Source: an uncultured bacterium (GTDB taxonomy: Bacteria; Vulcanimicrobiota; Xenobia; Xenobiales; Xenobiaceae). From it: DNA of 64,000 nucleotides. Below, piece after piece: positions 13,847 to 48,852 of this stretch. Location of the stretch: the NCBI GenBank assembly GCA_958366945.1, contig CATXCY010000010.1, forward strand, positions 6,463-70,462. Direction: 5' to 3'. Made by a program: the position numbers and the translations under genes. Under the pieces are notes generated by a model. That model was not told where the DNA came from. It ran no database searches and saw only the letters and a program-made list of their open reading frames with translations. Each line of letters opens with the position of its first letter. Positions within the stretch are counted from its first letter, which is position 1.

Positions 13847-14002
13847 TCCTAAAAGTTGACTCCCCCTCTTCTATAGTTCGTTTATATATCCTAGCAAGGG
13901 TGTCAATTTTGAGAGCGCCTTGAAGTCGGCCTTCCAATTTCTTAGACAAAATTTCTTTTTATTTGAAGGAGTGGAGGGCCTTTAATTGAATGCGCACTCA
14001 TC

Positions 14003-25881: not shown

Positions 25882-26031
25882 CGGCGTAATTTTATACTTC
25901 TGCCAATCACTTTGCCTGCTGCTTTTGTCTATTCGGAGGCAAAGTGATTGTTCATTATAGAAAATTTTATATTCCATTGCTGGATAAAAATACAGGAAGC
26001 CCTGCAATACAATAGAACTTTCTACAGTATC

Positions 26032-27249: not shown

Positions 27250-27294
27250 TCAGTTCTCTTTTGCGTGCACATGACACAGCTCATTGGAGGTACC

Positions 27295-28485: not shown

Positions 28486-28513
28486 AATTTCCCAAAGTTT
28501 GTCTTTTTCTATA

Positions 28514-28569
28514 ATACCCGCAAAAGTACGCGAGCTGCTTAGAAGTGCGTACAAAGCGGGTATTTTTTG
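28514..28569 (+). terminator. Strong rho-independent terminator
   Basis: ATACCCGCaaaaGTACGCgagctgcttagaagtGCGTACaaaGCGGGTATTTTTTgt: nested hairpin plus T-run. Confidence 0.75.
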
Positions 28570-28680
28570 TGATGAGTTAATTAAAAATATTCTATAAAAA
28601 ATTTGCCTGCAACTCTTTACTTTTAGGCCTTGTGCCTTGAAAATAAGGACAAGTCTAGTTTTAAAAGAGAGGTAATTCTC

Positions 28681-29814: not shown

Positions 29815-29844
29815 GTAAATAGCACTATATAGCTTTGCAATAAC

Positions 29845-29888
29845 AACTCCCTCCGAGTATAAATTTAGCTCGGGGGGAGTTTTCTTTT
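29845..29888 (+). terminator. Rho-independent terminator
   Basis: AACTCCCTCCGAGtataaatttagCTCGGGGGGAGTTttctttt. Confidence 0.75.
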
Positions 29889-29993
29889 GACTAAGATTAG
29901 ATGCAAATAAAGAAATAATAAAGAAAAGTCTAGACGCCTTGGCAAGCTGTCGTTATACATAAGAAACTACTTTTTAGGTTTGGAAGGTGCGTT

Positions 29994-30938
29994 ATGTCTT
30001 TGCCATCTATCACCATGAATTTCTTGGCTGCGCAAGGTGTTGCGGGATTGCCAACCAGTTCCAATAGTGCAAGCACTGGCGTTAATAGTACTGCTGTTTC
30101 TGCTCTTGATAGCGCTTCTCTTAGTTCTTTAGCTACAGCAGGAACTGATGGATTGGCCAACCTTGGCTCTTTGTCTGATTACTTGTCTGGTCAGGCCTCT
30201 GGAAGTTCTGGCAGCAGTGCCTCTTTGGGACTTTCTGGCAGTGCCGATTTTGCTTCCATGGTTGGTGAAATTGCCAAGCAATATAAGGGCAGCAGTTCTT
30301 CTTCTGCCAACAATCAGGTAATGTCCACTGCTGCCAATATGTTAAAAACATATTTTAAGCAATTTTGTCCTGGTATGAGTGACGACCAGATTACCGCTAT
30401 TTGTAATATGGCCTCTGCACAATACGGCGATTTAGCTAAAGCTATGGATATGAGTTCTTTAACTTCCAGTGTTATGGGCTCTTCTTCTGCTGCTTCTGGA
30501 GCTACTGGCGCTTCTTCTAGTGCTGGTTCTTCCGCAGTTTCAAAAGTAAGTGCCAAAGACGTTAAGGGTACCGCTTGGGGCAAGGCTTTAGCTGCTGACG
30601 CAGAGTCTCATGCCACAGGTAGCGGCGGCTGGTGCTTCAAATATGTGCGCCAAGCTTTAGAGCGCCATGGAGTTACTGGAGTTGGTGGCGCCAGTGCTTA
30701 TATGGCTGCCGATCAATTAGCCCGCAATAGTAACTTCAAAGAAATTAGTGTTTCAGAATCAGATCTTCGCAATTTGCCTGCAGGTTATGTTGTCGTTTGG
30801 AATAGAGGTAACGGTGCTAGTAGGCAGCATGGCCATATTTGCATCTCTTTAGGCGATGGTAGAGAAGCTTCTGACGTTATTCGCAAAATGACTCAAGGAT
30901 ATGGCACTTCCTTTAGAGTTTTTCAGCCTGTAAAATAA
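29994..30938 (+). CDS. Polymorphic-toxin-like protein: low-complexity N-terminal region, same conserved internal module, C-terminal Tae4-like papain-fold peptidoglycan amidase
   Basis: C-terminus GGWCFKYVRQALERHG...AGYVVVWNRGNGASRQHGHICISLGDG parallels the Cys (xCxxxxxxLxxxG) and His (GH-hydrophobic) motifs of the Tae4 family of gamma-D-glutamyl-mDAP amidases. No signal peptide. Confidence 0.55.
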   Translation: MSLPSITMNFLAAQGVAGLPTSSNSASTGVNSTAVSALDSASLSSLATAGTDGLANLGSLSDYLSGQASGSSGSSASLGLSGSADFASMVGEIAKQYKGSSSSSANNQVMSTAANMLKTYFKQFCPGMSDDQITAICNMASAQYGDLAKAMDMSSLTSSVMGSSSAASGATGASSSAGSSAVSKVSAKDVKGTAWGKALAADAESHATGSGGWCFKYVRQALERHGVTGVGGASAYMAADQLARNSNFKEISVSESDLRNLPAGYVVVWNRGNGASRQHGHICISLGDGREASDVIRKMTQGYGTSFRVFQPVK

Positions 30939-33315: not shown

Positions 33316-34416
33316 CTAATGACGAGGGAAATTCTTAATTGTAGATACTACAGTGGCAATTTGCTCGTCGCTAAGTTCGGGGAACATAGGCAAGGACATG
33401 ACTTCTTTTTGCACTTGCTCGCAAATTGGCAAAGAGCCTTCCTTCATGCCGCTGGATGCAAAAGTTTTTTGCAAGTGAAGGCATACTGGGTAGTAAATGG
33501 CCGGACCAACACCGTTTTCACGCATATAATCGAAAAGCTCGTCACGATGAGGAGTGCGAATAGTGTACTGGTGGAAGACGTGATGGAAACCTTCGCGCTC
33601 AAGAGGAGTGATCACTCCGCTGTCTTTCAGAGCTTCTGTGTATTTTTGAGCTACAGAGCGACGCTTTTTATTCCACTCATCGACATGTTTGAGCTTGACG
33701 CGCAAAGCGGCAGCCTGAATTTCGTCTAAACGACTATTGGTGCCTAAAATTTCGTGATAGTATCTGACCTTACTGCCGTGACCGCGCAGCATTTGCACTT
33801 TTTCAAAGTACTCGTCGCTATTGGTTAAAACCATACCGCCGTCGCCAATACCGCCTAAGTTTTTGCTGGGGAAGAACGAGAAACAGCTGAGATCGCCGAA
33901 TCCTCCGACTTTTTTGCCATCTACGCAAGCTCCGGTAGCTTGAGCGCAGTCTTCAATTAAAGCTAAATTGTGCTCTTGGCAAATAGCCTTAATGGCTTTG
34001 ACATCGGCAGCGTGTCCGTAAAGGTGGACGCAAATTACAGCTTTGGTATGTGGAGTGATAGCTTTCTTTAAGCTTTCCGGATCTAAAGTAAAAGTGCGAG
34101 GGTCAATATCGGCAAATACAACTTTGGAACCAGCCAAAGCTACAGCGCCGGCGGAAGCTACAAAAGTGAAGGAAGGGACGATAACTTCATCGTCGGCTTT
34201 AAGATCTAGGGCTCTCACTGCCAATTGCAGAGCATCAGTGCCGTTCCCTACGCCTATACCGTGTTTAACTCCGTTCCAAGCCGCAAACTCTTCTTCGAAA
34301 GCTTTTACTTCGGGGCCTAAAACATATGCAGTAGAGCGCAGAACTTTCAGTACGGCTGCTTCCAATTCATCTTGGATTTGAGAGTACTGAGTGCGAAGCT
34401 CTAAAATAGGGATCAT
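33316..34416 (-). CDS. DegT/DnrJ/EryC1/StrS-family PLP-dependent sugar aminotransferase
   Basis: VIVPSFTFVASAGAVALAG, DCAQATGA, FSFFPSKNLG (PLP lysine). 366 aa. Confidence 0.88.
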   Translation of the reverse strand: MIPILELRTQYSQIQDELEAAVLKVLRSTAYVLGPEVKAFEEEFAAWNGVKHGIGVGNGTDALQLAVRALDLKADDEVIVPSFTFVASAGAVALAGSKVVFADIDPRTFTLDPESLKKAITPHTKAVICVHLYGHAADVKAIKAICQEHNLALIEDCAQATGACVDGKKVGGFGDLSCFSFFPSKNLGGIGDGGMVLTNSDEYFEKVQMLRGHGSKVRYYHEILGTNSRLDEIQAAALRVKLKHVDEWNKKRRSVAQKYTEALKDSGVITPLEREGFHHVFHQYTIRTPHRDELFDYMRENGVGPAIYYPVCLHLQKTFASSGMKEGSLPICEQVQKEVMSLPMFPELSDEQIATVVSTIKNFPRH

Positions 34417-34768: not shown

Positions 34769-36583
34769 TTAACCTTTGCTGCGTACTTCAAACTCTAAGC
34801 GCCATTTAGGAATGGAGTCTTGGCAACACCAAACTTCTAAGGTACCTACTTCGGTTACATAAGTTTCTAAAGTAACTGGTACTACTTTACCAATTTCTCC
34901 CGCTTCAGCCGGTAAAGTAATTTGCAACGAAGGCAATTCTTCTATATCGTCTTCCCAATCGTCGATTAAGTCACCAATTTTATCTTGCTGTCGACAAGTG
35001 GAAGCTAAAAATCTAAATTCAGCCAGTTCGCCTATGACCAGGCCGAAACTGCGATTAGGTAGACGCTCGCGTGAGTCTTCTTCCATGCCGAAAGGAGCGA
35101 CGCATAAAGCTTTAATGGGAGGAACAAGACCAGGAACAGCTGGCATGGAAGTTTCGATACCAACATAATAAGAGCGATTGGTACCGGCTTTAATTCTTAT
35201 TCCAGAACCTTGACTAGCCAAACCGCTGCGCACGGCTCCGCGAGCTACGGCCAAGTCGTAGTCCGCTCCTACTAATTCTTTGGCGGGAGGAGCTCCCACA
35301 GATTCTAACCAAGAGTTTACCGTTTCCAATAAACGACGGCGCAAGATGGGAGCTTTCAGCACGCCTCCGTTAAAGAGAATTGCTGTAGGAGCAAAAATGG
35401 GAGCGGAGCCATCTTCTGGTTTATTGGCTGCCAAAAATCTGGCCAAATGTTTGGTGATAGCCGGATTCGATTCAAAAGGCAAGCCCAATTCGCGCAAACC
35501 ACTTTGACGAGACCGTTCAGCTTGTTCATCAAGGGAACATTTAGGGAAGAATCCGTCTACAATTAGTTGCTCGGTAACTTGGCGGCTTAAGGAGTCGGCA
35601 ATGGAAGAAGCTATTAAGCTGCTGCCGCGTCCAGGAATGGTGACGCTCCACTCTTCCTCGGCGTATTCTTGTAACAGTTGCTCTTTGGCTGTGCGGCAAG
35701 CATGGGTGAGGACTTGCATTTGCCAAGCGTCAAGCTTAATTTTACGCTCTGATTTTAGCTTTTGCTGCATATACACAGCCAAAGTCAGATCCATGTTGTC
35801 TCCGCCAAGTAAGAGATGATCTCCTACAGCTGAGCGCTCTAAGCATAAGCTGCCGCCTTGGTCGGCTACAGTAATAAGGCTAAAGTCGGTAGTTCCTCCA
35901 CCTATATCACATACTAAAATTTTGTCTCCGACTGCTACTTGAGAGCGCCAATCTTCTTCAGTGTTAACCAACCAAGCATAAAAAGCGGCTTGAGGCTCTT
36001 CTAAGAGGGTTAAATTTTTGATGCCAGCTTTTTGAGCTGCTTGAACGGTTAGTTCTCTAGCTATCGTATCAAAGGAAGCAGGTACAGTTAAAACGACTTG
36101 CTGATCTTCTAAGGGCTGATCGGGGTGTTCAAAATTCCAAGCTGAACGTAAATGCTCCAAATAACGAGCCGAAGCGTCAATGGGGGAGATATGCTCCACT
36201 TCTTCGGGAGCGTTCCAAGGCAAAATAGGAGCACTGCGATCTATTTGCTCACTAGAAAGCCAAGACTTGGCTGAAGAAACAACTCTGTGGGGAACTTTAG
36301 CGCCTTGCTCACGGGCCATATATCCGACTATGTCTTTGGCCTCTTTATCCCAAGGCAATTCGATACTATGGGCTGGCAATTCGTGGGAGCCGGGGAAGTA
36401 AAGAAATGAAGGCAGAGTCTTGCGTGGCTCTACTGTAGCCGGATAGGTAAGCTGAGGAACAGCAAAATGATTTATAGGAGGAGTCTCTTTAGCTGCCTTC
36501 GCTTGTGCTGAAATGGATTCCGGATCAGACCAAGCTAAAGCGCAATTTGTTGTTCCCAAGTCTATACCTATAATCATATGCAA
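34769..36583 (-). CDS. Hsp70-family (actin-like ATPase) protein, non-canonical
   Basis: IIGIDLGTTNCALAW, VLTVPASFDTIARELTVQAAQKAGI, VCDIGGGTTDFSLI. Confidence 0.8.
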   Translation of the reverse strand: MHMIIGIDLGTTNCALAWSDPESISAQAKAAKETPPINHFAVPQLTYPATVEPRKTLPSFLYFPGSHELPAHSIELPWDKEAKDIVGYMAREQGAKVPHRVVSSAKSWLSSEQIDRSAPILPWNAPEEVEHISPIDASARYLEHLRSAWNFEHPDQPLEDQQVVLTVPASFDTIARELTVQAAQKAGIKNLTLLEEPQAAFYAWLVNTEEDWRSQVAVGDKILVCDIGGGTTDFSLITVADQGGSLCLERSAVGDHLLLGGDNMDLTLAVYMQQKLKSERKIKLDAWQMQVLTHACRTAKEQLLQEYAEEEWSVTIPGRGSSLIASSIADSLSRQVTEQLIVDGFFPKCSLDEQAERSRQSGLRELGLPFESNPAITKHLARFLAANKPEDGSAPIFAPTAILFNGGVLKAPILRRRLLETVNSWLESVGAPPAKELVGADYDLAVARGAVRSGLASQGSGIRIKAGTNRSYYVGIETSMPAVPGLVPPIKALCVAPFGMEEDSRERLPNRSFGLVIGELAEFRFLASTCRQQDKIGDLIDDWEDDIEELPSLQITLPAEAGEIGKVVPVTLETYVTEVGTLEVWCCQDSIPKWRLEFEVRSKG

Positions 36584-36624
36584 ACGTCTCCCAGAATAGT
36601 TTATAAAAGTCCCAATTTACCAGG

Positions 36625-37131
36625 CTATAACTCTACTTCAGCCGGACAAATAACGTCTGAATCTTCGTCCTGAGCGCTTTGGGGCAAATTGGCTTTTTGT
36701 AAGCGCCAGCCTTTGTGACGCAAGATCCCTTTGAAGGGCGGATCGCCTTCTACTTTGCCTACCAAACGAATTGCGCCTGGATCGAAGCCGTCTTCTACAG
36801 TAATTTCTATACCTTCTTCTTCGGTACGGATAGGCTCCAGAATCAAATACTCTTGGACAGCTTTGCGGCAGCCTTTATAAACAGTAGATTTTACTACAGC
36901 TCCGACTTGAGCGTCAGGGACATTCTCTAAATCTTCTTGCAAAAAGTCTATAAGCCGTCCTTCTCTCTGAAGCAAAGCTAAAACTCCTACCGCACCGGGA
37001 TAAAGCGAAGGTACTCCGGACGGAGTTTCTTGAACAACTTCGCGATCTGCCAGCAGAAGAGCCAACTTTTCGGCAAATTCTTTATTAAACAAAGCTTTGA
37101 AAAAAGCTTTAAAAGCTGTGATTATACGCAT
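36625..37131 (-). CDS. Small acidic protein, possibly DUF2760-like Hsp70 partner
   Basis: 168 aa, N-terminus MRIITAFKAFFKALF, directly downstream of the Hsp70-like gene on the same strand. Confidence 0.35.
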   Translation of the reverse strand: MRIITAFKAFFKALFNKEFAEKLALLLADREVVQETPSGVPSLYPGAVGVLALLQREGRLIDFLQEDLENVPDAQVGAVVKSTVYKGCRKAVQEYLILEPIRTEEEGIEITVEDGFDPGAIRLVGKVEGDPPFKGILRHKGWRLQKANLPQSAQDEDSDVICPAEVEL

Positions 37132-38368: not shown

Positions 38369-38689
38369 TTAGCGGCGGGCTCCACCGTGATTTTTGAAGC
38401 ACTCCGCGCAATAAATGGGCTTATCGTTGCGAGGGCGGAAAGGTACTTTGGCGGTTTTGCCGCACTCAGCGCAAACTACTTCGAACATTTCACGAGTACC
38501 GTTAGAACGGCCTAAAGAGCCATTTTCACGCTCGCGTTTGTGGTTGCGGCGACACTCTGGGCAGCGGCGGGGATCACTGGAAAAACCTTTAGAACTGTAA
38601 AACTCTTGTTCACCGGCTGTAAAAACGAAAGTCTCGCCACAATCACAGCAAGTTAAAGTACGATCAGAAAACACTCTAATTTCCTCCAA
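38369..38689 (-). CDS. Internally duplicated zinc-ribbon protein (2 x CxxC...CxxC)
   Basis: CCDCGETFVFTAGEQEFY...CPECRRNH and CAECGKTAKVPF...CAECFKNH. Confidence 0.5.
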   Translation of the reverse strand: MEEIRVFSDRTLTCCDCGETFVFTAGEQEFYSSKGFSSDPRRCPECRRNHKRERENGSLGRSNGTREMFEVVCAECGKTAKVPFRPRNDKPIYCAECFKNHGGARR

Positions 38690-39176
38690 CAGGAAGTTGC
38701 CAACGGGAATGCGAGCTTCTCGACATACTTCCCAGGGGTCTAAACCCAGGAATCATCGGATACCAACAAATTTCGCCTGCTAAAATGCAGGTCTTACGAG
38801 TTCTCTCCGCAATGGATGATGCCCCACCCATATTTATTTTGACTAAATACAAGCAACGAAACAACCAGCATTAAGGGAAGCCGTAGCTTTTATTCCAATT
38901 CGCACCAAAATTGTAGACCGCCCCTAAAAAGTAGTCAAGGAGTGAAAGTGGCGAAAGGTTAAGAAAAATTTAATTAAATTGAGCTGAATTTTGCTTATAA
39001 TGCGCCTTTCTGCATGAATAAAGAGAATGAAAATGTATATCTCTCGAATCTACCTTTTCTAGTAAAAAAATAAAATCAATCAATAAAATATTGCACTTTG
39101 TCCTATCGCTTTATTTATGGAAAAAATCCTATAAATGTACCAAGTAAAAAGTACTTAACCTAAAAGCAAGTATAAT

Positions 39177-40880
39177 CTATTGACTGATTAATTTGCGCAA
39201 ATCCCCGTATTGTCTGATCTTAAACCAAGTTAATTCTCCGTTAAGTAAGTAACGCCAGGCTACAGCTCCCATTTTTATGAAATTAGTTGCCCAAGCTAAA
39301 TAAAACGGAAATTGCCAATGACGTTTAAAAAAATCTCGTCGCTCTAGCAAGAAATTTATGAAACTTTTGGGTATGAACGATTTTGAAGCCAGACAGTATA
39401 TAGCTAAATAAAAGCGATCTTCTGGACTACGAGGCCAATCCATCGAAACACGGAACTGCTTCCAAGCTTTGTTGTTCATGCCTTCAACCTCATCGGGAGA
39501 AAGTTTGCCTTCAGCCAGTAATCTTTTGGTTATGGCTGTGCCTGGAAAATAGTTAAGTGAGTAAAAATAGACGTCGTAAGGGCGTTCTAGCTCTAACATA
39601 AACTTGGCTGTTTCTAATTTCATCTTTTCATCGGCCCAAGGGTTGTCGATAATTAGATCATAAACAGCTGATATGCCCAGTTGTTTGTTGAATTTGGAAA
39701 AGGCTAGTATATTATCGTTGCCCGGTATGCGGTTATGAACAGCCAAACTTTCCTGCGGTGAGCCGCTTTCGATGCCTGTTTGCATTCGGACCAAGCCGGC
39801 TTTTTTTAGCTTCTCCAGAAAAGGCTGACGTAACATAGGTGGTATAAGCATACATTCAAAGGGCAAACCTATACGCTGTGGATATTTTGAGCAGAATTCG
39901 TCTACCCATGAGGGAGGGGCTGCAAAAGCTGTATCATCATCTATTTTTACTCTAGCCAAACGGGGAAAATGCTTTTTTATATATTCAAGCTCGCCTAAAA
40001 TGTGCTCTACGGAGCGTAGACGATAAAATTTTTGTTTGTCGGCCGCAAATTTTTCGCGCAGAATAGATACATAACAGTAAGAACAATTATAAGGACAGCC
40101 CCGTGAACAATAAATTCTGTATTCAGCTGTTCTCTTCCAGGGCTCTTCATTGTGAATTTTTTTATCTTCTATATAAAACTTATTGAAATCGTCTACATCT
40201 GGATAAGGCAATTCGTCCAAGTTGGCAATTAGAGGGCGCATTTCGTTTTTGTAAATTTTGTCTCCCAACTTTGCCCAAATATTGGGAATATCGCCGGTAA
40301 AATTATTGCTGTATAGAGCCTCGCATAAGTCTATAAGTGGAGCTTCTCCTTCGCCCAGACAGAGATAATCGGCGCAATCTAAAGCTCCTTCGGGGACAGC
40401 AGTAACGTGAATACCGCCCCAACATACTGGTAAATCAGAAAAGCGTTTTTTTAGTGCTTTGGTAAGCTCTTTTACCATTGGCAACAAGCTAGAAATAAAG
40501 CCTATGCCTACAAGATTGGCTTGTTTGTCGGCTATAATTTTGAATACCAACTCTAGTTCTTGAGCTGAAGGCATTTCCAATTTGTTATTTACCCAATCGC
40601 GCAAGAAAATTAGATCCACCTGGAAACCGGCGCGGCGTAAAGCTGCTGATAAGTAGCGCAAACCGGAATTTTCAACGCTGTAAATAGCTATTAATATTAC
40701 ATTAAATTGTTTTGGCTCTCCGTACCAACCAGAGCGAGGTGCCCAGGGAGCATGAATTTGTTTCTGTGCCGATCCTAAAGCCGGATCGAAAAGAGCCTCT
40801 GCCGATCCTGGAGAAGCGCCGGGAGCAGTTAATTTTGATGAAAAATTGTCATAAGTAATAGTTTTATCTGAATTTAACAT
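39177..40880 (-). CDS. B12-binding-domain radical SAM protein
   Basis: N-terminal B12-binding Rossmann region (VILIAIYSVENSGLRYLSAALRRAGF), radical SAM motif CSRGCPYNCSYC. Overlaps the upstream gene by 7 nt. Confidence 0.8.
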   Translation of the reverse strand: MLNSDKTITYDNFSSKLTAPGASPGSAEALFDPALGSAQKQIHAPWAPRSGWYGEPKQFNVILIAIYSVENSGLRYLSAALRRAGFQVDLIFLRDWVNNKLEMPSAQELELVFKIIADKQANLVGIGFISSLLPMVKELTKALKKRFSDLPVCWGGIHVTAVPEGALDCADYLCLGEGEAPLIDLCEALYSNNFTGDIPNIWAKLGDKIYKNEMRPLIANLDELPYPDVDDFNKFYIEDKKIHNEEPWKRTAEYRIYCSRGCPYNCSYCYVSILREKFAADKQKFYRLRSVEHILGELEYIKKHFPRLARVKIDDDTAFAAPPSWVDEFCSKYPQRIGLPFECMLIPPMLRQPFLEKLKKAGLVRMQTGIESGSPQESLAVHNRIPGNDNILAFSKFNKQLGISAVYDLIIDNPWADEKMKLETAKFMLELERPYDVYFYSLNYFPGTAITKRLLAEGKLSPDEVEGMNNKAWKQFRVSMDWPRSPEDRFYLAIYCLASKSFIPKSFINFLLERRDFFKRHWQFPFYLAWATNFIKMGAVAWRYLLNGELTWFKIRQYGDLRKLISQ

Positions 40881-42049
40881 AGCGGACTTACCCTTTTTAT
40901 TTCGTTAGCTAGATCCGAGGGAGAAGGCAGAGGCTTAGCGGAAAAACGGCGGAAATTCATGCGCAGAGCGTTAAAAAAAGCGGAGGTATTATGCAAAGTT
41001 AAAGCTATCTCCCACCAACAAGGACGCAAGCAAGCTCGACAATTATGACGCAAATTTTTGAGATAATTTAAGTCGCGTTTTTGCTGGTACCAATTTACAA
41101 AATCGCTTTCATAGACTTTGGGCGCTTTACTGGAAGCGTCATTTTGAAAATGACACATAGAGTAAGTGCCGCTTGGGCTGATAGAAAAACTAAGGCCGCC
41201 AGTTTGGCAATCTGTTCCTGTGCCCCAATAATTGGTATTCGTCTGTTGCGCAGTAGTAGATTTTGTGCTGTCGGCAGCTTTTAAGAAATTGACCATAGCT
41301 TTTAAATAAGGCTCAGAATTAAAAATCGGTGATTGTGGTTGCCGTTTAGCTTGTAATATGTAGTTAAGCAATTTGTTGAGAGCGGCTTCATCTTTTTCAC
41401 TAAAGCGCATTGCTTCTGAATCAGCAGAACAAGCCAGAATTTCTCCTTGATAGCTGTGTCTTTCTAAGGGAACTAAAGATAAATAAAAATTATAGGCTTT
41501 GGCTATAGCTAGCATTTGCGGAATATCTTTTATATTGCGCGTTGAAACTACACAATTTAAGATGCCAGTTCCGCCACGTTTACGAATTATTTCCGCCCAA
41601 AATTTAATTCGCTCAATTATCTTTTCCCAAATTTCTGGCTTGTGGCATATTTCACTCTGAACTTGGGGATGAGGAGTATCTAAAGAAATTGAAATGTGAC
41701 GCAACCCAGCCTCGACTACTGCCATATGTAATTCCTCTGTGCCTGCTAGGGCGTTGGTCAAGACTCTAGTTTCAATTCCTCTGTCGATAAAAGCTTTGAC
41801 TATTTTAGGTAAGTCTGGGCGCAGAAAAGGTTCACCACCTCCCAGAGAAATGGCCATAGTGCCGAGGCGACGCAGATTATCGGCTGTGGATTCTATTTGC
41901 GCAATTGTAAGTTCTTCGTCTTGACGCCCTTTTTTCCATAATCCACACATGGCACAAGTGAGGTTGCAGCGGTGAGTCAAGCCAAAATGAACATATATAG
42001 GTGTGTTGCCGTTCCAAAAAGCTTTAACAAGCGACCAAGGGTTTTTCAC
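40874..42049 (-). CDS. Radical SAM protein with C-terminal SPASM-like Cys cluster
   Basis: THRCNLTCAMCG (CxxxCxxC), GGGEPFLRPDL, C-terminal CRACLRPCWWE. Confidence 0.75.
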   Translation of the reverse strand: MKNPWSLVKAFWNGNTPIYVHFGLTHRCNLTCAMCGLWKKGRQDEELTIAQIESTADNLRRLGTMAISLGGGEPFLRPDLPKIVKAFIDRGIETRVLTNALAGTEELHMAVVEAGLRHISISLDTPHPQVQSEICHKPEIWEKIIERIKFWAEIIRKRGGTGILNCVVSTRNIKDIPQMLAIAKAYNFYLSLVPLERHSYQGEILACSADSEAMRFSEKDEAALNKLLNYILQAKRQPQSPIFNSEPYLKAMVNFLKAADSTKSTTAQQTNTNYWGTGTDCQTGGLSFSISPSGTYSMCHFQNDASSKAPKVYESDFVNWYQQKRDLNYLKNLRHNCRACLRPCWWEIALTLHNTSAFFNALRMNFRRFSAKPLPSPSDLANEIKRVSPLC

Positions 42050-43503
42050 AATTTCAGGATCTCCCAGCCAGCTTTTAATTTGCGGGCCATATCATTAAAA
42101 TTTTTAAGCTCTAGCAACTTGCGGAACATTTGCTTAGGGCGCAAATAAAAGCGTTTGAAAGCTTTATCGCATAGAGAGCTGAGCTCTGAGGCTGTAAAAA
42201 ATTCTGTCCATACTTGAGGCTTAAAATCAGGATATGGATTGGCCAAAAAATTCTCCCAATGTTGCGGATCGAGAATGCCTCTAGCTACACCTTGATCATA
42301 AATCAAAGTGTTAGGATAAGGAGTTAAAATTCCAAATAGAGCGTAATCAGGATCGAGAGAAATGGCAAAATCTACAGTACGATTTATTTCATCTATAGAA
42401 CTGTCATGAGGACAGCCGATCATAAAGTAGCATACCGTAGTTAAACCTTCATCAGTAAGCATTTTGAAGGCCTGACGCACCTTATCTGTAGTCAGATTTT
42501 TATTTAAAGCCTTCATACCAGCATCTGTACCAGACTCAACTCCTATATGCACTCTGGTACAACCTGCCAAACGCATAGCTTTTACGGTTTCTGGAGTTAG
42601 GCAATTGGCGCGGGCTCGAATATTCCAATTTACTTTAATGGAGCGTTTATTTATTTCTTCACAAATAGCCAAAACGCGGTCTCGACGGACGTTAAAGGTA
42701 TCGTCTACTATATATATTTCATGTACACCTAAATTGGCGCAAACTTCCATTTCATCTACTACTGACTTGGCACTTCGCCAACGCCAGGTAGTACGTCCGG
42801 GAGTGTTGCAAAAAGAACATTTGTAAGGACAGCCACGGCTGGTTAAGAGAGAAGTTGCTATAGCTTCACTACCCAAAACGTAGCTATACTTGCGGTAGTC
42901 TAGTATCTCGCGTCGAGGAAAAGGTAGTTTATCCAAATCGTCTATGGGTGGTCGTGAACATGTTTGCACGATATTCCCTTGATTGTCTTTAAAAAATAAG
43001 CCTGCAATGTTGCGCAAGCTATTTTCTAAAGTTTGACAATCGTAACCGTGGCTGTCGCTCCAGGAGGCTAAGTGGGCTTGCACAACTTCTGTAAAAGCTT
43101 CTTCTCCTTCAAAGGGAATGCAACCATCCAAACATTGGTATTTCATGCACTGTTGGGGAAAATCAGAAACATGCGGGCCGCCCCACCAAACCTTTACCGT
43201 TTTACCCAAATCTTTTTTTACCGACTCAGATACTTGAATCATGTCAATTAGATCATGAGTATGACCGGTTAGGCCTACTATTTGTGGTTTATAGTCAATT
43301 ATAAGTTTGCGCAATTGCTCAAGGTGAAGATGATCGGCCAAACAATCGATAAGACGTGTTTCTACCTGAGTATACTTATGGAGATGGGCTTCTATATAAA
43401 GCAAGCCTAAAGGCGGAATAGTGTTGGTTTCCGCATTTACCGTAGTTGGCACTTCTGAGGATATACTGTTGTCACGTGGTGGATTTATTAAAAGGATTCT
43501 CAT
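42046..43503 (-). CDS. B12-binding-domain radical SAM protein
   Basis: MRILLINPP N-terminus, radical SAM motif TSRGCPYKCSFCNTP. Confidence 0.82.
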   Translation of the reverse strand: MRILLINPPRDNSISSEVPTTVNAETNTIPPLGLLYIEAHLHKYTQVETRLIDCLADHLHLEQLRKLIIDYKPQIVGLTGHTHDLIDMIQVSESVKKDLGKTVKVWWGGPHVSDFPQQCMKYQCLDGCIPFEGEEAFTEVVQAHLASWSDSHGYDCQTLENSLRNIAGLFFKDNQGNIVQTCSRPPIDDLDKLPFPRREILDYRKYSYVLGSEAIATSLLTSRGCPYKCSFCNTPGRTTWRWRSAKSVVDEMEVCANLGVHEIYIVDDTFNVRRDRVLAICEEINKRSIKVNWNIRARANCLTPETVKAMRLAGCTRVHIGVESGTDAGMKALNKNLTTDKVRQAFKMLTDEGLTTVCYFMIGCPHDSSIDEINRTVDFAISLDPDYALFGILTPYPNTLIYDQGVARGILDPQHWENFLANPYPDFKPQVWTEFFTASELSSLCDKAFKRFYLRPKQMFRKLLELKNFNDMARKLKAGWEILKL

Positions 43504-43567
43504 AAGGTTGTTTTGACAGCTCTCGGACTTTTATTGCATGTATATGCATTGATTAATTAGCGGATTG

Positions 43568-44596
43568 TTAGGAGCGCAGTTTGTTGCCCATTGCCATAAC
43601 CCATTGCAAAATAGTGCGATGATTGAGAGAAAAAAGTAGGTTGTACTCAGTAAAGCAAGTAGCCGAACAACTTTGGCAAGGCAATAGCTTTTGTCTGAGT
43701 TGCTTGGCTGCTTCAGCAAAACCTAATTCTATGGCATTGGGCCCCTGTTGATCACCTATAAGCAAAGAACAAGGATAAAGGCATCCATCTGCGTCTATAT
43801 TCAAATAGAACTGTCCGGCCCAACATTTTTTCCAAGCAGATCCACTGTCTGTAGAAGTGTTGTGACTGTAGTCTTTCCAATTGATAAGATGATCCAAACA
43901 CTGAATGGAATTACCTATCTTGCGCCCTTTAAGTTTAGCTTCTTTCAAATATTGTAAACATTCTCGATATTCTTCGTCAGAAGGGCGCAAGGGGTTGTTC
44001 ACTCCAAAATGATCGCTGTGATGCAATACTTGGAAAGTGGGAGTAAAACCATACTTTTCTGCTTCTTTTAAGATCCAGTCTACTTTGTAAATATTGTTAA
44101 TGGTTAAAACTGTAATAGTCCATAAAGCAACTGGACTTTGGGAGGCAATTTCTATGGCCGCCATCGCCTTTTCATAGGAGCCAGGCTCACGGTTGGCGTC
44201 ATGCGCTTCCTGAGGGCCGTCCAAAGATATGATTAAATGATCTAACTTTTCCAAGAGCTTAGTCTTTTGGGAAATGAGATATCCGTTAGTGTCTAGGGTT
44301 GTATATAAATTATTCTCTTTGGCACAACTGACGATTTCTTCAATATCAGGACGCAACAAAGGCTCGCCGCCCCAAATGCCCAAACGCTGAATACCGCAGG
44401 CTGCCATTTCTCGAATCAGTTTTCGCATTTGCTCTGTGCTCAATTCTGGCTGACGGCGGGCTGGAATTTTGCAATAGCGACAGTGCGACTGACAAGCATT
44501 ATTGGTGGCGATAGTGGCAAAAATCGGAGTTGGAGCACCGCTTAGGCGCCCTTTTAGGACGGCTGCTCCGGCTTTAGCCATGGTAATGAATTTCAT
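43568..44596 (-). CDS. Radical SAM protein with SPASM-like C-terminal Cys cluster
   Basis: NNACQSHCRYCK (CxxxCxxC), GGEPLLRPDI, C-terminal CQSCSATC and CLYPC. Confidence 0.75.
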   Translation of the reverse strand: MKFITMAKAGAAVLKGRLSGAPTPIFATIATNNACQSHCRYCKIPARRQPELSTEQMRKLIREMAACGIQRLGIWGGEPLLRPDIEEIVSCAKENNLYTTLDTNGYLISQKTKLLEKLDHLIISLDGPQEAHDANREPGSYEKAMAAIEIASQSPVALWTITVLTINNIYKVDWILKEAEKYGFTPTFQVLHHSDHFGVNNPLRPSDEEYRECLQYLKEAKLKGRKIGNSIQCLDHLINWKDYSHNTSTDSGSAWKKCWAGQFYLNIDADGCLYPCSLLIGDQQGPNAIELGFAEAAKQLRQKLLPCQSCSATCFTEYNLLFSLNHRTILQWVMAMGNKLRS

Positions 44597-44623
44597 GTTG
44601 CTTTTTGTCTCTCCGTATTGTGC

Positions 44624-46423
44624 CTAGTTTTTTTGAGAGTCAGTCGACTCGACTGCCTCTGCCGGAACATGCTCACTTACGACTGCTGAGTCGGAGCTGT
44701 TGCTCTTGCTTAAAGTTGTATTTTTGCGTAAAGCTAAAATGTTTTTGGCAACTGAAGAAGCAACTGGTCTGGCTGAAAGCGGTAGAGCCGCTGGTCGCGG
44801 AGGAGCAGTGTGTGTAGCAGCTGCTGTAGGCAACGGCGGAGCTACTGGTCGCGGAGGAGCAGCGTGTGTGGCAGCTGCTGTAGGCAACGGCGGAGTTACT
44901 GGTCGCGGAGGAGCAGCGTGGGTAGCAGCTGTTGTAGGCAACGGAGGAGCAGCTGTTCGCGAAGGAGCAGCGTGGGTAGTAGCAATAGGAGCAGCCAAGT
45001 CGGAATCAATATCGTAGGTGGCAGCTTCATCTATGACGGCGGCTCTGGCTTTGGTAAGGCTGTTATGTTTTGTCGGCTCATTTGTTTTTCTGTAGGTAAC
45101 AGAGTGGGGCTTTTCGTTTTTCACTTGGGGCAGAGCAAATTCTTTCTGCCCTCCGTAGTGAAGAATAGTGTCCAGCGAATAGCGGCACCCCTCAACTATG
45201 CGTTCTAAGTCGGCATCTTTAAGTCTAGGATAAATAGGTAAATGTAATTGCACACGGGCTAACAAGTTAGCGTTGGTCAACTTGCTAGTATAGCTAACAG
45301 AATCAGATAAAATGGAAATTTGCTGAATTGGTTTTAAATATCCTGGAGATGTATCGATGGCATGACTGGAAAGTTGTCTAGCTAATTTTTCATTTTCAAT
45401 ATGGCCGATTACAAATGAATTAAAGACCGATTCGCCATAGTCGGGATATTCAGGAATAATCAGTCCTGGTAAATCGGCTTGCTTAAAAAGCTTAATCAAT
45501 TTTTTGCCATTTTGCGTACGCAGCGCGTTCTGCTCTTCAGCCCAGTCTAGCAAGCGGCGTCCCAAAGCGGCTTGTGCTGGTGAGGGCTTAAAGCTTATAT
45601 CAGGAGCGTTAGTATTGACACTATCTTCAAACATGCTATGCAAGGCATCCTTGCCTAAAAAAGACCAACCGATGCTTAGCAAAATATAAGCGCTAGCTGT
45701 AAAACCTAAAGTTGTCGTACCTGCCCACATAGCTGCGGCTTTGAATATTTGGGGATAAATAGAAGAGCTGGGAGCTATATAGGAGTCTTCCATGCGCAAG
45801 GTTGCTATTTCAGCTAAATGCTGATCTTGGAAAACGGCCATACCGCCGCCCAAGGTGGTGAAATTTTTCGTCAAGGCAAACGAGAAAATAGCCGCATCAC
45901 CGAAAGAACCTGCTTTTTTGCCATTTATGGTTGCGCCAAAACCTTGGGCGCAGTCTTCAATTACAAATATGTTTTTGCTTCTAGCTATAGTAGCGAGCTC
46001 TTCTGCAGGAGCTGGACAGCCATACATATGGGTAATAATAATAGCGGAAACGCCTTCCCAATCTTCATCTTTGATAGTTTCGGGGCCCATTACCCAGCTG
46101 CCCTGACGAATATCTACTAAGTGTGGTTGGAGGCCGGCAGCAATGATGGTGGAAGGAATAGAGTGATGGGTCCAAGCTGGGATCATCACCTTAGAATGGG
46201 GCGCTAAGTTCAGACATTGTAAAATAAGGTACAGCGCACCTCTAGCCGAATTCATATAAATAGCTTTTTTGACGCCTATATGTTCGGCGAATTTATTTTC
46301 GAATTTTTCTACTTCGCTGTTTCTTGCCTGACTTATTTCGCTGATAAACCATTGAATGTCTGTAAAATTTAGGGCTAAGTCGAACCTAGGAATTGGCCAC
46401 CCGTTTTTCAAAAAATTTGACAT
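44624..46423 (-). CDS. DegT-like PLP aminotransferase fused to C-terminal proline-rich tandem-repeat and Ser-rich tail
   Basis: DCAQGFGA...GSFGDAAIFSFALTKN (PLP Lys). The C-terminus carries four AATHAAPPRPVxPPLPT repeats encoded by 51-bp tandem repeats. Confidence 0.65.
   Translation of the reverse strand: MSNFLKNGWPIPRFDLALNFTDIQWFISEISQARNSEVEKFENKFAEHIGVKKAIYMNSARGALYLILQCLNLAPHSKVMIPAWTHHSIPSTIIAAGLQPHLVDIRQGSWVMGPETIKDEDWEGVSAIIITHMYGCPAPAEELATIARSKNIFVIEDCAQGFGATINGKKAGSFGDAAIFSFALTKNFTTLGGGMAVFQDQHLAEIATLRMEDSYIAPSSSIYPQIFKAAAMWAGTTTLGFTASAYILLSIGWSFLGKDALHSMFEDSVNTNAPDISFKPSPAQAALGRRLLDWAEEQNALRTQNGKKLIKLFKQADLPGLIIPEYPDYGESVFNSFVIGHIENEKLARQLSSHAIDTSPGYLKPIQQISILSDSVSYTSKLTNANLLARVQLHLPIYPRLKDADLERIVEGCRYSLDTILHYGGQKEFALPQVKNEKPHSVTYRKTNEPTKHNSLTKARAAVIDEAATYDIDSDLAAPIATTHAAPSRTAAPPLPTTAATHAAPPRPVTPPLPTAAATHAAPPRPVAPPLPTAAATHTAPPRPAALPLSARPVASSVAKNILALRKNTTLSKSNSSDSAVVSEHVPAEAVESTDSQKN
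44781..44990. repeat. Coding tandem direct repeat, about 4 units of 51 bp
   Basis: gcagctgctgtaggcaacggcggag(c/t)tactggtcgcggaggagcagcgtg(t/g)gt(g/a) repeated head-to-tail on the + strand. It encodes the PxxP repeats of the minus-strand aminotransferase. Confidence 0.8.
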
Positions 46424-46607
46424 CTTACTGCGTATTGACTAATCCTATCCAGATCAACTCTAAGGTAGCTTCGGTCTAAGGCTGGTAGCTACCGACAGAA
46501 AAGTCAATTATCCCTTTCTGAAAATTAGATTGTCTATTTTGTGCGTTGTCAGTGAAAGCAATAAACTGAAATTTCAAGACTTATTTTCCGCTCAAATTTA
46601 GGAAATA

Positions 46608-47996
46608 TCAATTAACTTCCTTCAATACGGACTCTTCTTGAGCGCTTAAATTATCGAGTTTTAGAAGATATTTGGCCGCTGTACTTAACGAATTCTCTAT
46701 TGAATGATCCAAGTTGTTATACCAGAATCTGCCTGTTCTCCCCAAAAGCTCTAAATTCTCAAATTCTGAGCATTCTTTTTCCAAAGAGTTGAGCTTATCG
46801 ATATAGTTTAAACTGTATATAGGATATGCATCCCTAATCTTTTCTAACTTTGTATCTAAAACTTTGAAACTTTCGTCTATAACTTTTACTTGCTTCAATT
46901 CTTTTAATAAGCGAGGAAGTTGCTTTTCCGGATCTTGCCATAAATCGTCTTGGTAGCGGCAAGTAATTTCCAGACAAAGGCCACCTTTGCGGGCAGGCAC
47001 GCAGTCTGAACTAAAATAAGCAGGGTTGGATAGGCGAGAAAATAGCAAATTTTTATCACCGAAATAACACCATTGAGAGCGTTGTAAAGGCTCTTTGTCT
47101 AGCATTACATTGCATATCAGCTGGGAACGATAATCTAGTTCTGTGGGAGTGAGTGACAACTTGGCTGCCAATTCGTTAATAGAAGCGCTCCAGGCAACTT
47201 GTTCACAGTCGAAAGTGGCTTGTGTTGTAACTACCTTCTCAATTCTTTGGTGTCCATTAACCGTAGGAGCGCAAATGAGTTCGGTTACATCACAATTAGT
47301 GATGATCTCTCCGCCCAGTTTTTCAATTTGTCTTTGGCAGCTTTCCCAAAAGGCACAGATTCCACCCTGTTTGGGATAAAGGAAATTGAGCTCGGCTTTT
47401 TTGGGAAGCAGCATGAGCTTAAAAATCTCAAACAGAGAAGCTGTGTTGACGTTGTCATCAATAGTCGCTCTCTCCAAGCCAATCTTGGCCCAATTCCTAT
47501 GAGTTTGTTCAGTTGAAATACCGACAAATTTTTCGGTGTAATCTTTGAAAAATGTTTCGTAAAGCGTTTTCCCGTAGCGGCAAAGTACATACTCCTTGAA
47601 AGATTGGCTAGGACGTTGGCTGCGTCCTGTTCTCAGGATCATGTCTAGACCAGCTTGAATGGCAATATGCAAAGGCAATTTAGCTATGGTCGCCAAGCGG
47701 AGAGGCCAATCATGATATTGTCCCATAAAGTAAACTTGGGAGAAACGTTGAATTTCCGTAAATCGATCTTGATGGATCTCTTTTAGAAAGCGATTTACTT
47801 TAGGATTTTGCGAGTAAAAACGATGTGGCCCTATATCAAAAGTCCACTCTCCGTAGTGAAAGCTGCGCGACAAGCCTCCCGCTTTTTTCTCGCGCTCCAA
47901 TACAGTTACAGGCAATCCTGCTTTACAGAGATAATAGGCCAAAGTCAGGCCGGCTGCCCCTCCGCCGACTATTACATAGCGCTTCACAGAAACCAC
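46608..47996 (-). CDS. FAD/NAD(P)-binding oxidoreductase (amine-oxidase / UDP-galactopyranose-mutase-like fold)
   Basis: N-terminal dinucleotide-binding motif YVIVGGGAAGLTLAYYL...VLEREKKAGG. Confidence 0.65.
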   Translation of the reverse strand: MVSVKRYVIVGGGAAGLTLAYYLCKAGLPVTVLEREKKAGGLSRSFHYGEWTFDIGPHRFYSQNPKVNRFLKEIHQDRFTEIQRFSQVYFMGQYHDWPLRLATIAKLPLHIAIQAGLDMILRTGRSQRPSQSFKEYVLCRYGKTLYETFFKDYTEKFVGISTEQTHRNWAKIGLERATIDDNVNTASLFEIFKLMLLPKKAELNFLYPKQGGICAFWESCQRQIEKLGGEIITNCDVTELICAPTVNGHQRIEKVVTTQATFDCEQVAWSASINELAAKLSLTPTELDYRSQLICNVMLDKEPLQRSQWCYFGDKNLLFSRLSNPAYFSSDCVPARKGGLCLEITCRYQDDLWQDPEKQLPRLLKELKQVKVIDESFKVLDTKLEKIRDAYPIYSLNYIDKLNSLEKECSEFENLELLGRTGRFWYNNLDHSIENSLSTAAKYLLKLDNLSAQEESVLKEVN

Positions 47997-48852
47997 CTAA
48001 AAAAACAAAGTATCAGGGCTTCAGAATAAGGTTGCGCCATGTCGGTTGTAGCATGTACCTCAATAGGAGCCTTTTCTTTAAACCACCTACTTCCATTCCT
48101 CAGCCAAGGCGGGGGTGGTTCTTCTTGAATATAAGTCTAACCTGCTATTTTTCGGGGATTTTGCCGCATCTTAGACTGTAAAAAAATATTATAAAATTTT
48201 AACATCGCGCCATAATTTAAAAATAAAAAAATATTTTTTGGGCTTGGTCTCAATAAGTAAAATATTATCTCATATACAGTGTATGCTTTGGCTGAATAAA
48301 GCGATATGTCTCATTTCTGCCCCTGCTAGATGCTATATGTGGAACCTAATATATACAATATAGTGTTAAAAAATCACTATATATAGTATAAAAAGCAGGA
48401 AAAATGTGCTCAGAAGTCGCATGTTTACTTTCTGGTTTGAATTGACGAAATCAGCTGTGATAGTTAGTATCAGAGAAGATGCGGAGTAGGGTGCGGTACT
48501 TATTAGGACGGTTGAAGCTGTGTGCGGGGGCCTCCATAGGTTGAGAAAATATGGCAGTTCTGGTAGCGCCGAAGCAGACAATGCTCATATAAATAAAGAT
48601 CCGGAGGCGGAGATCTTTGAAGAGTATGGCTGGTAACAATACAAAGGGAGTTATGTATCCTCTAAGAGCTCAGCTTAGCCTAAACGATTGGCAGCGAGTA
48701 AGTACAGATAAGGCTTTGGCAGAGTTTTCTGGTATAGCTAGATATACAACTATAAAATTTGCTTTAAAATCCGCTTCTTCTTTTTCGTCTGTAAAAAATA
48801 TTAACAGTAAGTTGAAAAAAATATAAGGGTTTTGCTTTCGGCATAAAATCAA
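47997..48852. promoter_or_regulatory. Long AT-rich divergent intergenic region (radical SAM operon leader / rsmH promoter)
   Basis: About 850 bp with no convincing ORF, extreme AT runs and several TATAAT-like hexamers. Confidence 0.3.

Follow-up and report, generated by a model that had tools for sequence, protein, structure and literature searches.

A six-gene radical-SAM operon of the uncultured gut bacterium Candidatus Bruticola and its possible role in oxygen-independent sugar tailoring

What is the substrate of an operon that devotes four of its six genes to radical S-adenosylmethionine (SAM) enzymes? The question is posed by a 64,000-nucleotide stretch of bacterial DNA (here the window; positions 6,463 to 70,462 of the forward strand of contig CATXCY010000010.1, GenBank assembly GCA_958366945.1), in which six open reading frames (ORFs) follow one another head to tail on the minus strand at 39177-47996 (Table 1). 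An earlier reading of the letters alone, here called the original prediction, left the substrate class (sugar, lipid or peptide) fully open. The evidence now favours a sugar, because the flavoprotein looks like a UDP-galactopyranose mutase (UGM), the DegT-type aminotransferase keeps its pyridoxal-phosphate (PLP) lysine, the 342-aa radical-SAM enzyme is BlsE-like in architecture and sister clusters in other organisms contain glycosyltransferases. We propose, at a probability of roughly 0.45, that the operon tailors, by oxygen-independent chemistry, a sugar that is linked to a nucleotide or a lipid, yielding an unusual amino sugar for a cell-envelope glycoconjugate.

The exact sequences of all six proteins occur in public assemblies, under generic names where any are given, and the organism is recorded as "Candidatus Bruticola sp.", an uncultured animal-gut member of the class Xenobia, phylum Vulcanimicrobiota/Eremiobacterota. 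The operon locus recurs across many public metagenome assemblies and sequencing runs. ORF coordinates and Pfam matches bear out the six minus-strand genes, and the domain calls made from the letters alone were essentially right: Radical_SAM (PF04055) matches four of the proteins (74.7, 85.3, 81.8 and 46.9 bits, gathering cut-off 29.5), two of which, of 485 and 567 aa, also contain a B12-binding domain (PF02310; 60.5 and 55.9 bits, cut-off 32.1). CxxxCxxC motifs start at residue 35 of the 342-aa protein, at residue 28 of the 391-aa protein and at residues 225 and 262 of the B12-domain enzymes; with PF04055 above its cut-off this places all four in the radical-SAM superfamily. Translational coupling, which had been claimed for the operon as a whole, holds for its last two junctions (three genes) but not for all six genes: the start of the 391-aa gene overlaps the preceding stop by 4 nt (GTGA) and that of the 567-aa gene by 7 nt (ATGTTAA), and the remaining three junctions are gaps of 64, 27 and 184 nt. 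Public gene calls start the flavoprotein 9 nt downstream of its first GTG. In Pfam and NCBIfam scans no operon protein scores high enough, by the curated cut-offs, to be placed in a named NCBIfam family. Because all NCBIfam matches lie far below these cut-offs, none of the radical-SAM genes falls into a cofactor or other named family, and they stand as orphans.

Table 1. Features of the operon region, in window coordinates.
Feature	Position	Strand	Details
UGM-like flavoprotein gene (FADox)	46608-47996	-	462 aa from GTG 47996; 459 aa from GTG 47987
DegT/DnrJ/EryC1 PLP aminotransferase gene	44624-46423	-	599 aa
Tandem repeat in DegT tail	44791-44983	-	54 nt (18 aa, THAAPPRPVxPPLPTAAA), 3.6 copies, 90% match, Tandem Repeats Finder (TRF)
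Radical-SAM enzyme gene, one C-terminal auxiliary-cluster motif	43568-44596	-	342 aa
B12-binding-domain radical-SAM gene, HpnJ/BchE-like COG1032 type	42046-43503	-	485 aa
Radical-SAM gene, distant paralogue of the 342-aa protein	40874-42049	-	391 aa
B12-binding-domain radical-SAM gene	39177-40880	-	567 aa
Divergent spacer between operon and dcw cluster (mraW)	47997-48852	.	865 bp from 459-aa start, 856 bp from GTG 47996; GC 0.37
Spacer from last operon stop to zf_Tbcl	38690-39176	.	487 bp; GC 0.37

The flavoprotein had been described as an oxidoreductase that contributes an oxidation. Pfam assigns it NAD_binding_8, Amino_oxidase and DAO matches, and its best NCBIfam match is PRK07208.1-4 (252 bits, cut-off 389). 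A single-sequence search of the PDB gave N-terminal matches only. A family profile (A4, 18 members) was required for the match to UGM, and the first 27 PDB matches of this profile are all UDP-galactopyranose mutases. Its alignment with the T. cruzi enzyme (4dsg, E = 3e-29) runs end to end (positions 6-443 on 10-456), whereas CrtI, protoporphyrinogen oxidase and amine/amino-acid oxidases match only at the N-terminal FAD motif (first 60-130 residues). Four conserved motifs of the family pair with motifs of UGM: FDIGPHRF with the "GPH" loop, FFxxYTxKF with "FFKGYTIKQW", FSR(L/V)S with "FYRAT" and GRTGxFWYNNxD with "GRFGAWRYEVGNQD". We take the paired motifs to be the UDP-sugar and flavin site of UGM (His loop, uridine-pocket region, diphosphate-binding Arg in "FYRAT", C-terminal GRxGxYxY). 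R56, R318, R417, Y423 and N425 are invariant among the 18 family members. By full-length homology and active-site motifs the protein belongs with UGM (Glf, including the eukaryote type), with which it shares the GPH loop, FFxxYTxK, FxR and GRxGxYxY..D. It differs in failing the curated model TIGR00031, in that the Pfam GLF domain is not reported, in having Leu in place of the Trp of the KpUGM "KQW" motif and in being always linked to radical-SAM genes; we know of no UGM with such a linkage. On this comparison the flavoprotein is UGM-like, not a Glf orthologue. The profile matches and motifs suggest a mutase-like protein with no evident oxidase character, and the oxidation role once assigned to it is doubtful.

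A DegT-like aminotransferase with proline-rich repeats had also been predicted, and both the Pfam call and the repeat proved real. The 599-aa protein matches DegT_DnrJ_EryC1 (PF01041) with E = 1.5e-58 and 199 bits (cut-off 19.8); the substrates of this family are almost only NDP-keto-sugars and inososes. It does not reach the cut-offs of the named sugar aminotransferases (PseC, ArnB, DesI, WecE and others), the best NCBIfam match being PseC (113 bits, cut-off 423.5; ArnB, 100 versus 631). Its closest PDB entries are the Gln:scyllo-inositol transaminase 7b0d, QdtB, perosamine synthase and BtrR, enzymes whose substrates are NDP-keto-sugars or inososes. Among the DegTs of related clusters and canonical DegT, Lys186 (in SFALTKN) does not vary. 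With this Schiff-base Lys, and not a dehydratase-type His, the protein is a member of the DegT/DnrJ/EryC1/StrS aminotransferases. Lys186 is followed by a hydrophobic insertion of ∼ 40 aa that is common to the cluster-linked DegTs of four other loci (L010, L092, L095 and L097; L numbers denote loci) and missing from the second, canonical DegT of the window (33316-34416). A C-terminal tail of ∼ 170 aa (44624-45133), which is missing from the orthologues in the same four loci (other genera), contains the tandem repeat. Its copy number varies between strains (3, 4 or 6 copies in L001-L004), and the lengths found in the 90% cluster of DegT sequences (560, 563, 578, 581, 599, 617, 635 and 653 aa) are mostly multiples of 18 aa apart, in two series 3 aa apart. 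The repeat is a copy-number polymorphism within the species; the tail is possibly a linker or makes surface or partner contacts.

The two radical-SAM enzymes without a B12-binding domain have as best NCBIfam matches the PTO1314 family (342 aa; 109 bits, cut-off 306) and PqqE (391 aa; 87 bits, cut-off 381). Five extra Cys residues are invariant in the 342-aa family (C258, C276 and C307-x2-C310-x3-C314), and the 391-aa protein has the same auxiliary layout, C..C..CxxCxxxC. Both enzymes had been called SPASM-type, and NCBI labels the Bruticola orthologue "radical SAM/SPASM". We required for this class the motif CX9-15GX4C...CX2CX5CX3C...C together with a match to Pfam SPASM (PF13186); no operon protein matches PF13186 at E ≤ 0.01, and the seven-Cys motif is not present. 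With only five extra Cys the label is approximate and overstated. Read conservatively, each enzyme would hold a single auxiliary cluster, either of Twitch type or a partial SPASM. An AlphaFold2 model of the 342-aa protein (pLDDT 92) has as its best PDB fold match BlsE (7vob, TM-score 0.69/0.72, full length), and DesII, viperin and MoaA are also among the fold matches. BlsE is a nucleoside-sugar decarboxylase, and DesII, viperin and MoaA are nucleotide-substrate enzymes. The 391-aa protein is 22% identical to the 342-aa protein and 38% identical, over its full length, to a 350-aa radical-SAM protein of the Chloroflexi locus L097.

SkfB, SuiB and CteB also rank high among the 342-aa fold matches, via their maturase cores only, and the operon proteins have weak NCBIfam matches to many SPASM peptide maturases, to ApyD and to C-methyltransferases of peptides made by ribosomes and modified post-translationally (RiPPs). 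Such matches would suit four radical-SAM enzymes that cross-link and C-methylate a peptide encoded elsewhere, a proposal in which we place very little weight. A RiPP cluster would be recognized by a precursor gene and a RiPP recognition element (RRE) or PqqD-like domain, and neither was found: CxxxCxxC at residues 28-35 of the non-B12 enzymes leaves no room for an N-terminal RRE, and there is no PqqD-like gene. The small ORFs of both spacers were scanned and compared with the sister species. Those on the minus strand are interrupted there by stop codons, frameshifts or indels (in the upstream spacer, by stop codons or indels in the sister locus L099), and none occurs in distant operon-bearing loci, which bears out the earlier statement that no precursor peptide is visible; a plus-strand ORF beside mraW (below) is the only one kept open. 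Protease and transporter genes are likewise missing, and RiPP systems do not include a UGM-like protein, a DegT or glycosyltransferases. The very high sequence conservation across phyla also argues against a peptide.

Both B12-domain enzymes have the class-B order, an N-terminal B12-binding domain followed by the radical-SAM barrel. The original prediction took methylation as the typical role of such enzymes, which is not established, since the best matches (HpnJ, BchE and AprD4) are non-methylases and lie far below cut-off. For the 485-aa enzyme the NCBIfam scores are 180 bits to HpnJ (cut-off 577), 175 to BchE (481), 124 to AprD4 (500) and 112 to BzaD (450); for the 567-aa enzyme the best is HpnJ (83 bits, cut-off 577). 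HpnJ is associated with a proposed ring contraction, BchE is an oxidative cyclase and AprD4 a diol dehydratase acting on an aminoglycoside sugar; as AprD4 illustrates, a B12-binding domain need not bind B12. AprD4 is also the best PDB match of the 485-aa enzyme (E = 6e-31), over the radical-SAM core only; the enzyme differs from it in that the Pfam B12-binding match is N-terminal, in a region outside the AprD4 match. Homologues of the 485-aa enzyme at 42-47% identity occur in extended clusters (L092, L094, L096 and L097).

The 567-aa enzyme gave an AlphaFold2 model (pLDDT 76) of class-B radical-SAM fold that is equidistant from TsrM, OxsB, MgmA, TokK, CysS and AprD4 (14-18% identity, TM-score ∼ 0.5). 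It shares domain order and predicted fold with the class-B methylases TsrM, TokK, CysS, MgmA and OxsB but has no closer relative, and the fold search, which returned generic class-B relatives only, provided no functional lead. The family is unusually conserved: orthologues at 59-67% identity are found in metagenome-assembled genomes (MAGs) labelled Myxococcota, Deltaproteobacteria and Oligoflexia, and the next relatives are at ≤ 34%. In the Myxococcota-type loci the 567-type gene is paired with a second B12 radical-SAM gene, whose product is 36% identical to the 485-aa enzyme. An acidic protein of ∼ 100-117 aa is encoded after the 567-type gene in L087 (11597-12346), L089 (11566-12204), L013, L014, L017, L021, L022, L024, L026 and L028; it has the conserved C-terminal motif W(Y/F)L..(D/E)D(L/V)DGWE.TN.NEEK, no Pfam match and, in L015-L017, L028, L087 and L089, a ferredoxin gene next after it. 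The acidic protein could be a partner or a substrate of the 567-type enzyme. The pair of acidic protein and ferredoxin was not found in the window or in UBP9 loci.

The same six genes, in the same order, are present in six other loci at 42-92% identity: L099 at 85-92%, and L101, L103 and L008-L010 at 42-74%. L099, L101 and L103 were found by a metagenome scan with the 342-aa family. L008-L010 (UBP9_UBA6111 and two MAGs labelled "Burkholderiales") were identified by a scan of a genome collection with the 567-aa family, using tblastn with the six proteins. The flanking genes zf_Tbcl, Sua5 and MraW are common to close relatives only (all three in L099, the downstream pair in L007); they are not common to L101, L103 and L008-L010, and the flanks of L010 and L101 are unrelated. 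Because the order is kept while flanks are shared only by close relatives, the six genes are a unit that travels as a block. Co-localization of the homologues in other genomes, which the original prediction had proposed as a check, is in this respect strong. We rejected a functional tie to the neighbouring division and cell wall (dcw) or diaminopimelate (DAP) genes, as the flanks are unconserved beyond close relatives, and also a mobile island, as the GC content of the operon is like that of its surroundings.

Beyond these loci, the 342-aa radical-SAM gene is the anchor of a whole cluster family; 342-type homologues at 42-53% identity are found in clusters of Chloroflexi (L097), Firmicutes (L091) and many unassigned contigs. 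Neighbours were counted by panel tblastn over 47 metagenome loci, each at least 7 kb long and with a 342-type gene. The flavoprotein is present in 20 of the 47, any B12 radical-SAM enzyme in 19, a 391/350-type radical-SAM enzyme in 15, a Tes-like radical-SAM enzyme with an N-terminal zinc ribbon likewise in 15, DegT in 14, a peptidase-U32 protein in 12, a ∼ 270-aa companion of the U32 gene, without family match, in 10 and GNAT in six. Superset clusters (for example L095, L143, L156 and L149) contain all six homologues in the same relative order with extra genes interleaved, and the extended family adds Tes-like radical-SAM enzymes, UbiU/V-like peptidase-U32 pairs, more B12 radical-SAM enzymes and GNAT proteins. 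Judged by these comparisons, the window operon is a reduced version of a widespread cluster family (Chloroflexi, Firmicutes, Eremiobacterota and many metagenomes).

In several extended clusters the peptidase-U32 gene is followed by a conserved protein of ∼ 260-280 aa (L092, at 7167-8767 and 12342-14239; L094, L096, L097, L149, L156 and L171) with the motif RLY(F/Y)GQEFCERL...GRLLTKQKRGPRIL and no Pfam or NCBIfam match. The pairing recalls, by analogy, the oxygen-independent hydroxylase heterodimer UbiU/UbiV. A sub-branch of 342-type genes (∼ 44-49% identity) lies beside DUF362 and/or a succinyl-CoA-synthetase-like pair of ATP-grasp_2 and CoA-ligase genes in 10 loci (L093, L124, L126, L128, L129, L141, L145, L148, L152 and L174), with DUF362 before and ATP-grasp_2/CoA-ligase after. 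We regard this neighbourhood as a separate context and kept it out of the inference.

The UbiU/V-like U32 pairs and the MJ0619/Tes-type radical-SAM enzymes of the extended clusters, together with superfamily-level matches of the operon proteins to BchE, NirJ/AhbD, PqqE, MoaA and BzaD, would be expected of anaerobic cofactor biosynthesis, for instance of a tetrapyrrole, quinone or pterin variant. We nevertheless hold this to be highly improbable. All scores fall short of the curated cut-offs by a factor of 2 to 10, the resemblance of the flavoprotein to PPOX ends at the FAD motif and no other pathway genes are linked; the strongly variable gene content and patchy distribution are also unlike a cofactor pathway.

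Sister clusters place the same enzymes next to glycosyltransferases. In L149 a packed array on one strand comprises, in order, PMT_2, a family 2 glycosyltransferase (GT2), PMT_2, the flavoprotein, an IorA/IorB-like oxidoreductase, DegT, the 342-type and Tes-like enzymes, U32, its ∼ 270-aa neighbour, the 391-type enzyme, a B12 enzyme, a PEMT/ICMT-like protein and a second B12 enzyme. The stop of PMT_2 and the start of the flavoprotein gene share 4 nt, and the GT2 is closest to dolichol-phosphate-mannose synthase (DPMS), GtrB and ArnC. In L139 a GT2 adjoins the flavoprotein and PMT_2 stands after the cluster; the L127 cluster includes two GT4 enzymes, a Wzx-like flippase and a GT2. Genes of the Arn/Gtr-like kind (a GT2 with a GT-C-type membrane transferase) are present in L149 and L139 and, as a related set, in L127; they are found neither in the window nor in the minimal loci. 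Polytopic membrane proteins with 9-13 transmembrane-like segments (PMT_2, DUF2079 or unassigned) are encoded in L095, L127, L139, L149, L151 and L171, and other variants contain GNAT, NAD-dependent epimerase/dehydratase and MobA-like NTP_transf_3 genes. An IorA/IorB-like 2-oxoacid:ferredoxin oxidoreductase pair follows the flavoprotein gene in L139 (4730-7049, before the 342-type gene) and L149 (6510-8788, before DegT); it may supply low-potential electrons to the radical-SAM enzymes.

The combination of DegT, an ArnC/DPMS/GtrB-like GT2 and PMT_2 in L149 and L139 resembles the Arn pathway, which adds 4-amino-4-deoxy-L-arabinose (L-Ara4N) to lipid A by means of ArnB (DegT), ArnC (GT2) and ArnT (GT-C). 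The shared logic would be that an amino sugar is synthesized, then attached to polyprenyl phosphate and finally transferred outside the cytoplasm. The clusters differ in that an ArnA-type dehydrogenase/decarboxylase or formyltransferase is missing and four to eight radical-SAM enzymes and a UGM-like flavoprotein replace the NAD chemistry; the window operon itself is also without GT2 or GT-C.

The pairing of DegT with radical-SAM enzymes, with B12-domain enzymes alongside, is likewise seen in antibiotic sugar tailoring (DesI/DesII, BtrS/BtrN, AprD4/AprD3, GenK/GenD1 and BlsE), to which the operon is similar in the AprD4-like core of the 485-aa enzyme and the predicted BlsE-like fold of the 342-aa enzyme. 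The logic of BtrN/BtrS, AprD4 and GenK could accordingly serve a secreted aminocyclitol or aminoglycoside-like metabolite, a diffusible product and not an envelope glycan. The best solved relatives of the DegT do include the Gln:scyllo-inositol and 2-deoxy-scyllo-inosose aminotransferases, among solved structures AprD4 is closest to the 485-aa enzyme and the minimal operon is without a glycosyltransferase. We consider such a product improbable all the same, as no cluster variant contains a cyclitol synthase (2-deoxy-scyllo-inosose or inositol-phosphate synthase), a resistance gene or an exporter, and ∼ 60% identity of the 567-type enzyme across phyla is untypical of antibiotic tailoring enzymes. 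The linkage to GT-C and polyprenyl-phosphate GT2 enzymes points instead to envelope transfer. The operon further differs from the antibiotic systems in its unmet cut-offs (for AprD4, 124 versus 500 bits), in that BlsE is not among the listed family matches, in the lack of scaffold genes and in its wide phylogenetic conservation.

HpnJ is the top NCBIfam match of both B12 enzymes, and HpnR and a B12 family named for lipid "ladders" are also listed, which raises the case of a membrane lipid whose hydrocarbon or head group is modified by methylation, cyclization or head-group ring contraction, followed by amination. The Tes-like enzyme of the 47-locus survey, the conserved hydrophobic insertion of the cluster DegTs and the PEMT/ICMT-like membrane methyltransferase of L149 would agree with a lipid. 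Yet the match of the flavoprotein to UGM is full-length and that to CrtI/HpnE-type desaturases is confined to the FAD motif, every lipid-family score is far below cut-off, no locus examined contains lipid-synthesis genes and none of the six proteins has a hydrophobic segment of transmembrane grade. In the HpnI/HpnK/HpnJ (hopanoid cyclitol ether) and Cds (calditol) systems, radical-SAM enzymes are proposed to remodel a lipid-attached glucosamine or glucose ring (PMC13459092). HpnJ itself has a B12 domain; the operon differs from these systems in its low scores (180 and 83 bits versus 577), in the lack of hopanoid and tetraether genes and in its additional enzymes. We therefore judge a lipid substrate unlikely. 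The head groups on which the known lipid radical-SAM enzymes HpnJ and Cds work are sugars (PMC13459092), so that a lipid substrate would partly merge with our preferred sugar if the latter is lipid-linked.

Gene content, conservation, family and fold assignments and the glycosyltransferase linkage in relatives are established. From them we infer a substrate, an order of steps, a chemistry for each step and a product for what would be a self-contained, oxygen-independent route of sugar tailoring. The UGM-like flavoprotein would bind an NDP-sugar and perform non-redox, mutase-type flavin chemistry, for example pyranose to furanose. The 342-aa enzyme, with its BlsE/DesII-like architecture and one auxiliary cluster, would abstract a hydrogen from the sugar, in the manner of DesII, BtrN or BlsE, to give a keto or otherwise activated intermediate, whose keto group DegT, through the PLP-binding Lys186, could convert to an amine. 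The 485-, 567- and 391-aa enzymes may modify unactivated carbons by C-methylation, deoxygenation or ring rearrangement; a closest solved relative in AprD4 and a top NCBIfam match in HpnJ would fit a sugar as substrate of the 485-aa enzyme. For transfer to the envelope, a GT2 would load polyprenyl phosphate and GT-C-type membrane transferases would follow; in the relatives these are encoded in the cluster, in Bruticola presumably elsewhere.

Several observations weigh against sugar tailoring. All family matches of the operon proteins are at superfamily level, and the flavoprotein scores 36.3 bits against the curated UGM model TIGR00031 (cut-off 303.75). Neither the window operon nor any other minimal locus with the six genes has a glycosyltransferase, nucleotidyltransferase or 4,6-dehydratase gene within it or beside it; for the operon and spacers the original prediction had correctly noted that no glycosyltransferase or lipid-synthesis gene is visible. 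Many cluster variants are without DegT, so amination is accessory. The Myxococcota-type 567-type loci contain neither DegT nor flavoprotein and no nearby sugar genes, and known relatives of the Tes-like radical-SAM and UbiU/V-like U32 proteins of the extended clusters act on lipids, pterins, quinones or RNA.

The two spacers of Table 1 exceed every other intergenic gap of the window in length (median 75 bp), the upstream one being the longest. They had been described as AT-rich, of 850 and 310 bp and unusually long: their length stood, whereas the downstream spacer measures 487 bp and the AT-richness is modest (GC 0.37 versus 0.43). The figure of 310 bp was based on a 62-aa ORF (38676-38864) that is frameshifted in the sister species. 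Immediately before zf_Tbcl, 351 nt (38690-39040) are 94% identical in L099 and L007, compared with only 82% for the upstream spacer of the operon; this stretch may be a conserved leader or regulatory RNA. Rfam, at gathering and relaxed thresholds, gave no cobalamin or other riboswitch and no match in the upstream spacer or in this 351-nt stretch. A PreQ1-like match at 44618-44665 (-), over the DegT stop and the following gap (22.5 bits, gathering 39, E = 0.6), was taken as chance, and an Rfam miRNA match is at chance level. Promoter and terminator counts equal the shuffled expectation, so that operon boundaries are not definable from them; there is no terminator-like site in the downstream spacer, the first strong one on the strand being at 38302-38273, after zf_Tbcl.

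The genes on both sides of the operon have housekeeping roles. One flank is the dcw cluster, with mraW, a DivIC-like gene, a penicillin-binding protein and a Mur ligase. A 69-aa ORF upstream of mraW (48617-48826, +) is open in the sister species at 67% identity and called as a 66-aa gene in public assemblies; it has no Pfam match, and mraZ is not present. The other flank comprises the zinc-ribbon protein zf_Tbcl, Sua5, a DUF2760/Hsp70-like pair, the second DegT and a heparinase II/III-like protein. The DUF2760/Hsp70-like pair occupies 34769-37131 (-); its Hsp70-like member (604 aa) is atypical and matches HSP70/MreB only in part. Further away, ORFs of 314-433 aa without Pfam match form a run at 19921-20898 and 24865-30938 (+), between housekeeping genes; the run includes a 394-aa ORF with a C-terminal CHAP domain only.

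We found no description of the cluster in a full-text literature search by component names, TrsS, brGDGT, Xenobia and Bruticola, and a 2026 review of lipid radical-SAM enzymes contains nothing like it. Sugar tailoring by radical-SAM enzymes with DegT has precedents in antibiotic pathways; the present combination, its scale, the UGM-like partner and the linkage to envelope transfer have none known to us. A more far-reaching possibility, which we advance tentatively, is that the operon is the minimal form of a widespread anaerobic pathway in which as many as eight radical-SAM enzymes, including several that depend on B12, act on a sugar together with UbiU/V-like oxygen-independent hydroxylases and a UGM-like flavoprotein. 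They would produce an amino sugar with heavy C-modification (possibly methyl-branched, ring-contracted or carbocyclic) that is built on a nucleotide or polyprenyl-phosphate carrier and installed on the envelope by GT-C enzymes. If true, uncultured anaerobes would possess a new class of envelope sugar chemistry.

The question of "sugar, lipid or peptide" has been narrowed to a testable set of NDP-sugars, and several new, well-defined enzyme families would offer themselves for study, among them the very conserved 567-type B12 enzymes, the 342-type enzymes with their putative single auxiliary cluster and the radical-SAM-linked UGM homologue. What is known of radical-SAM sugar tailoring comes mainly from a handful of antibiotic pathways and from two lipid head groups. 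Should our preferred assignment to envelope sugars be correct, a cluster family spanning several phyla would mean that anaerobes routinely use radical chemistry to diversify their surfaces, and the operon could reveal a surface structure of the unstudied gut lineage Xenobia/UBP9.

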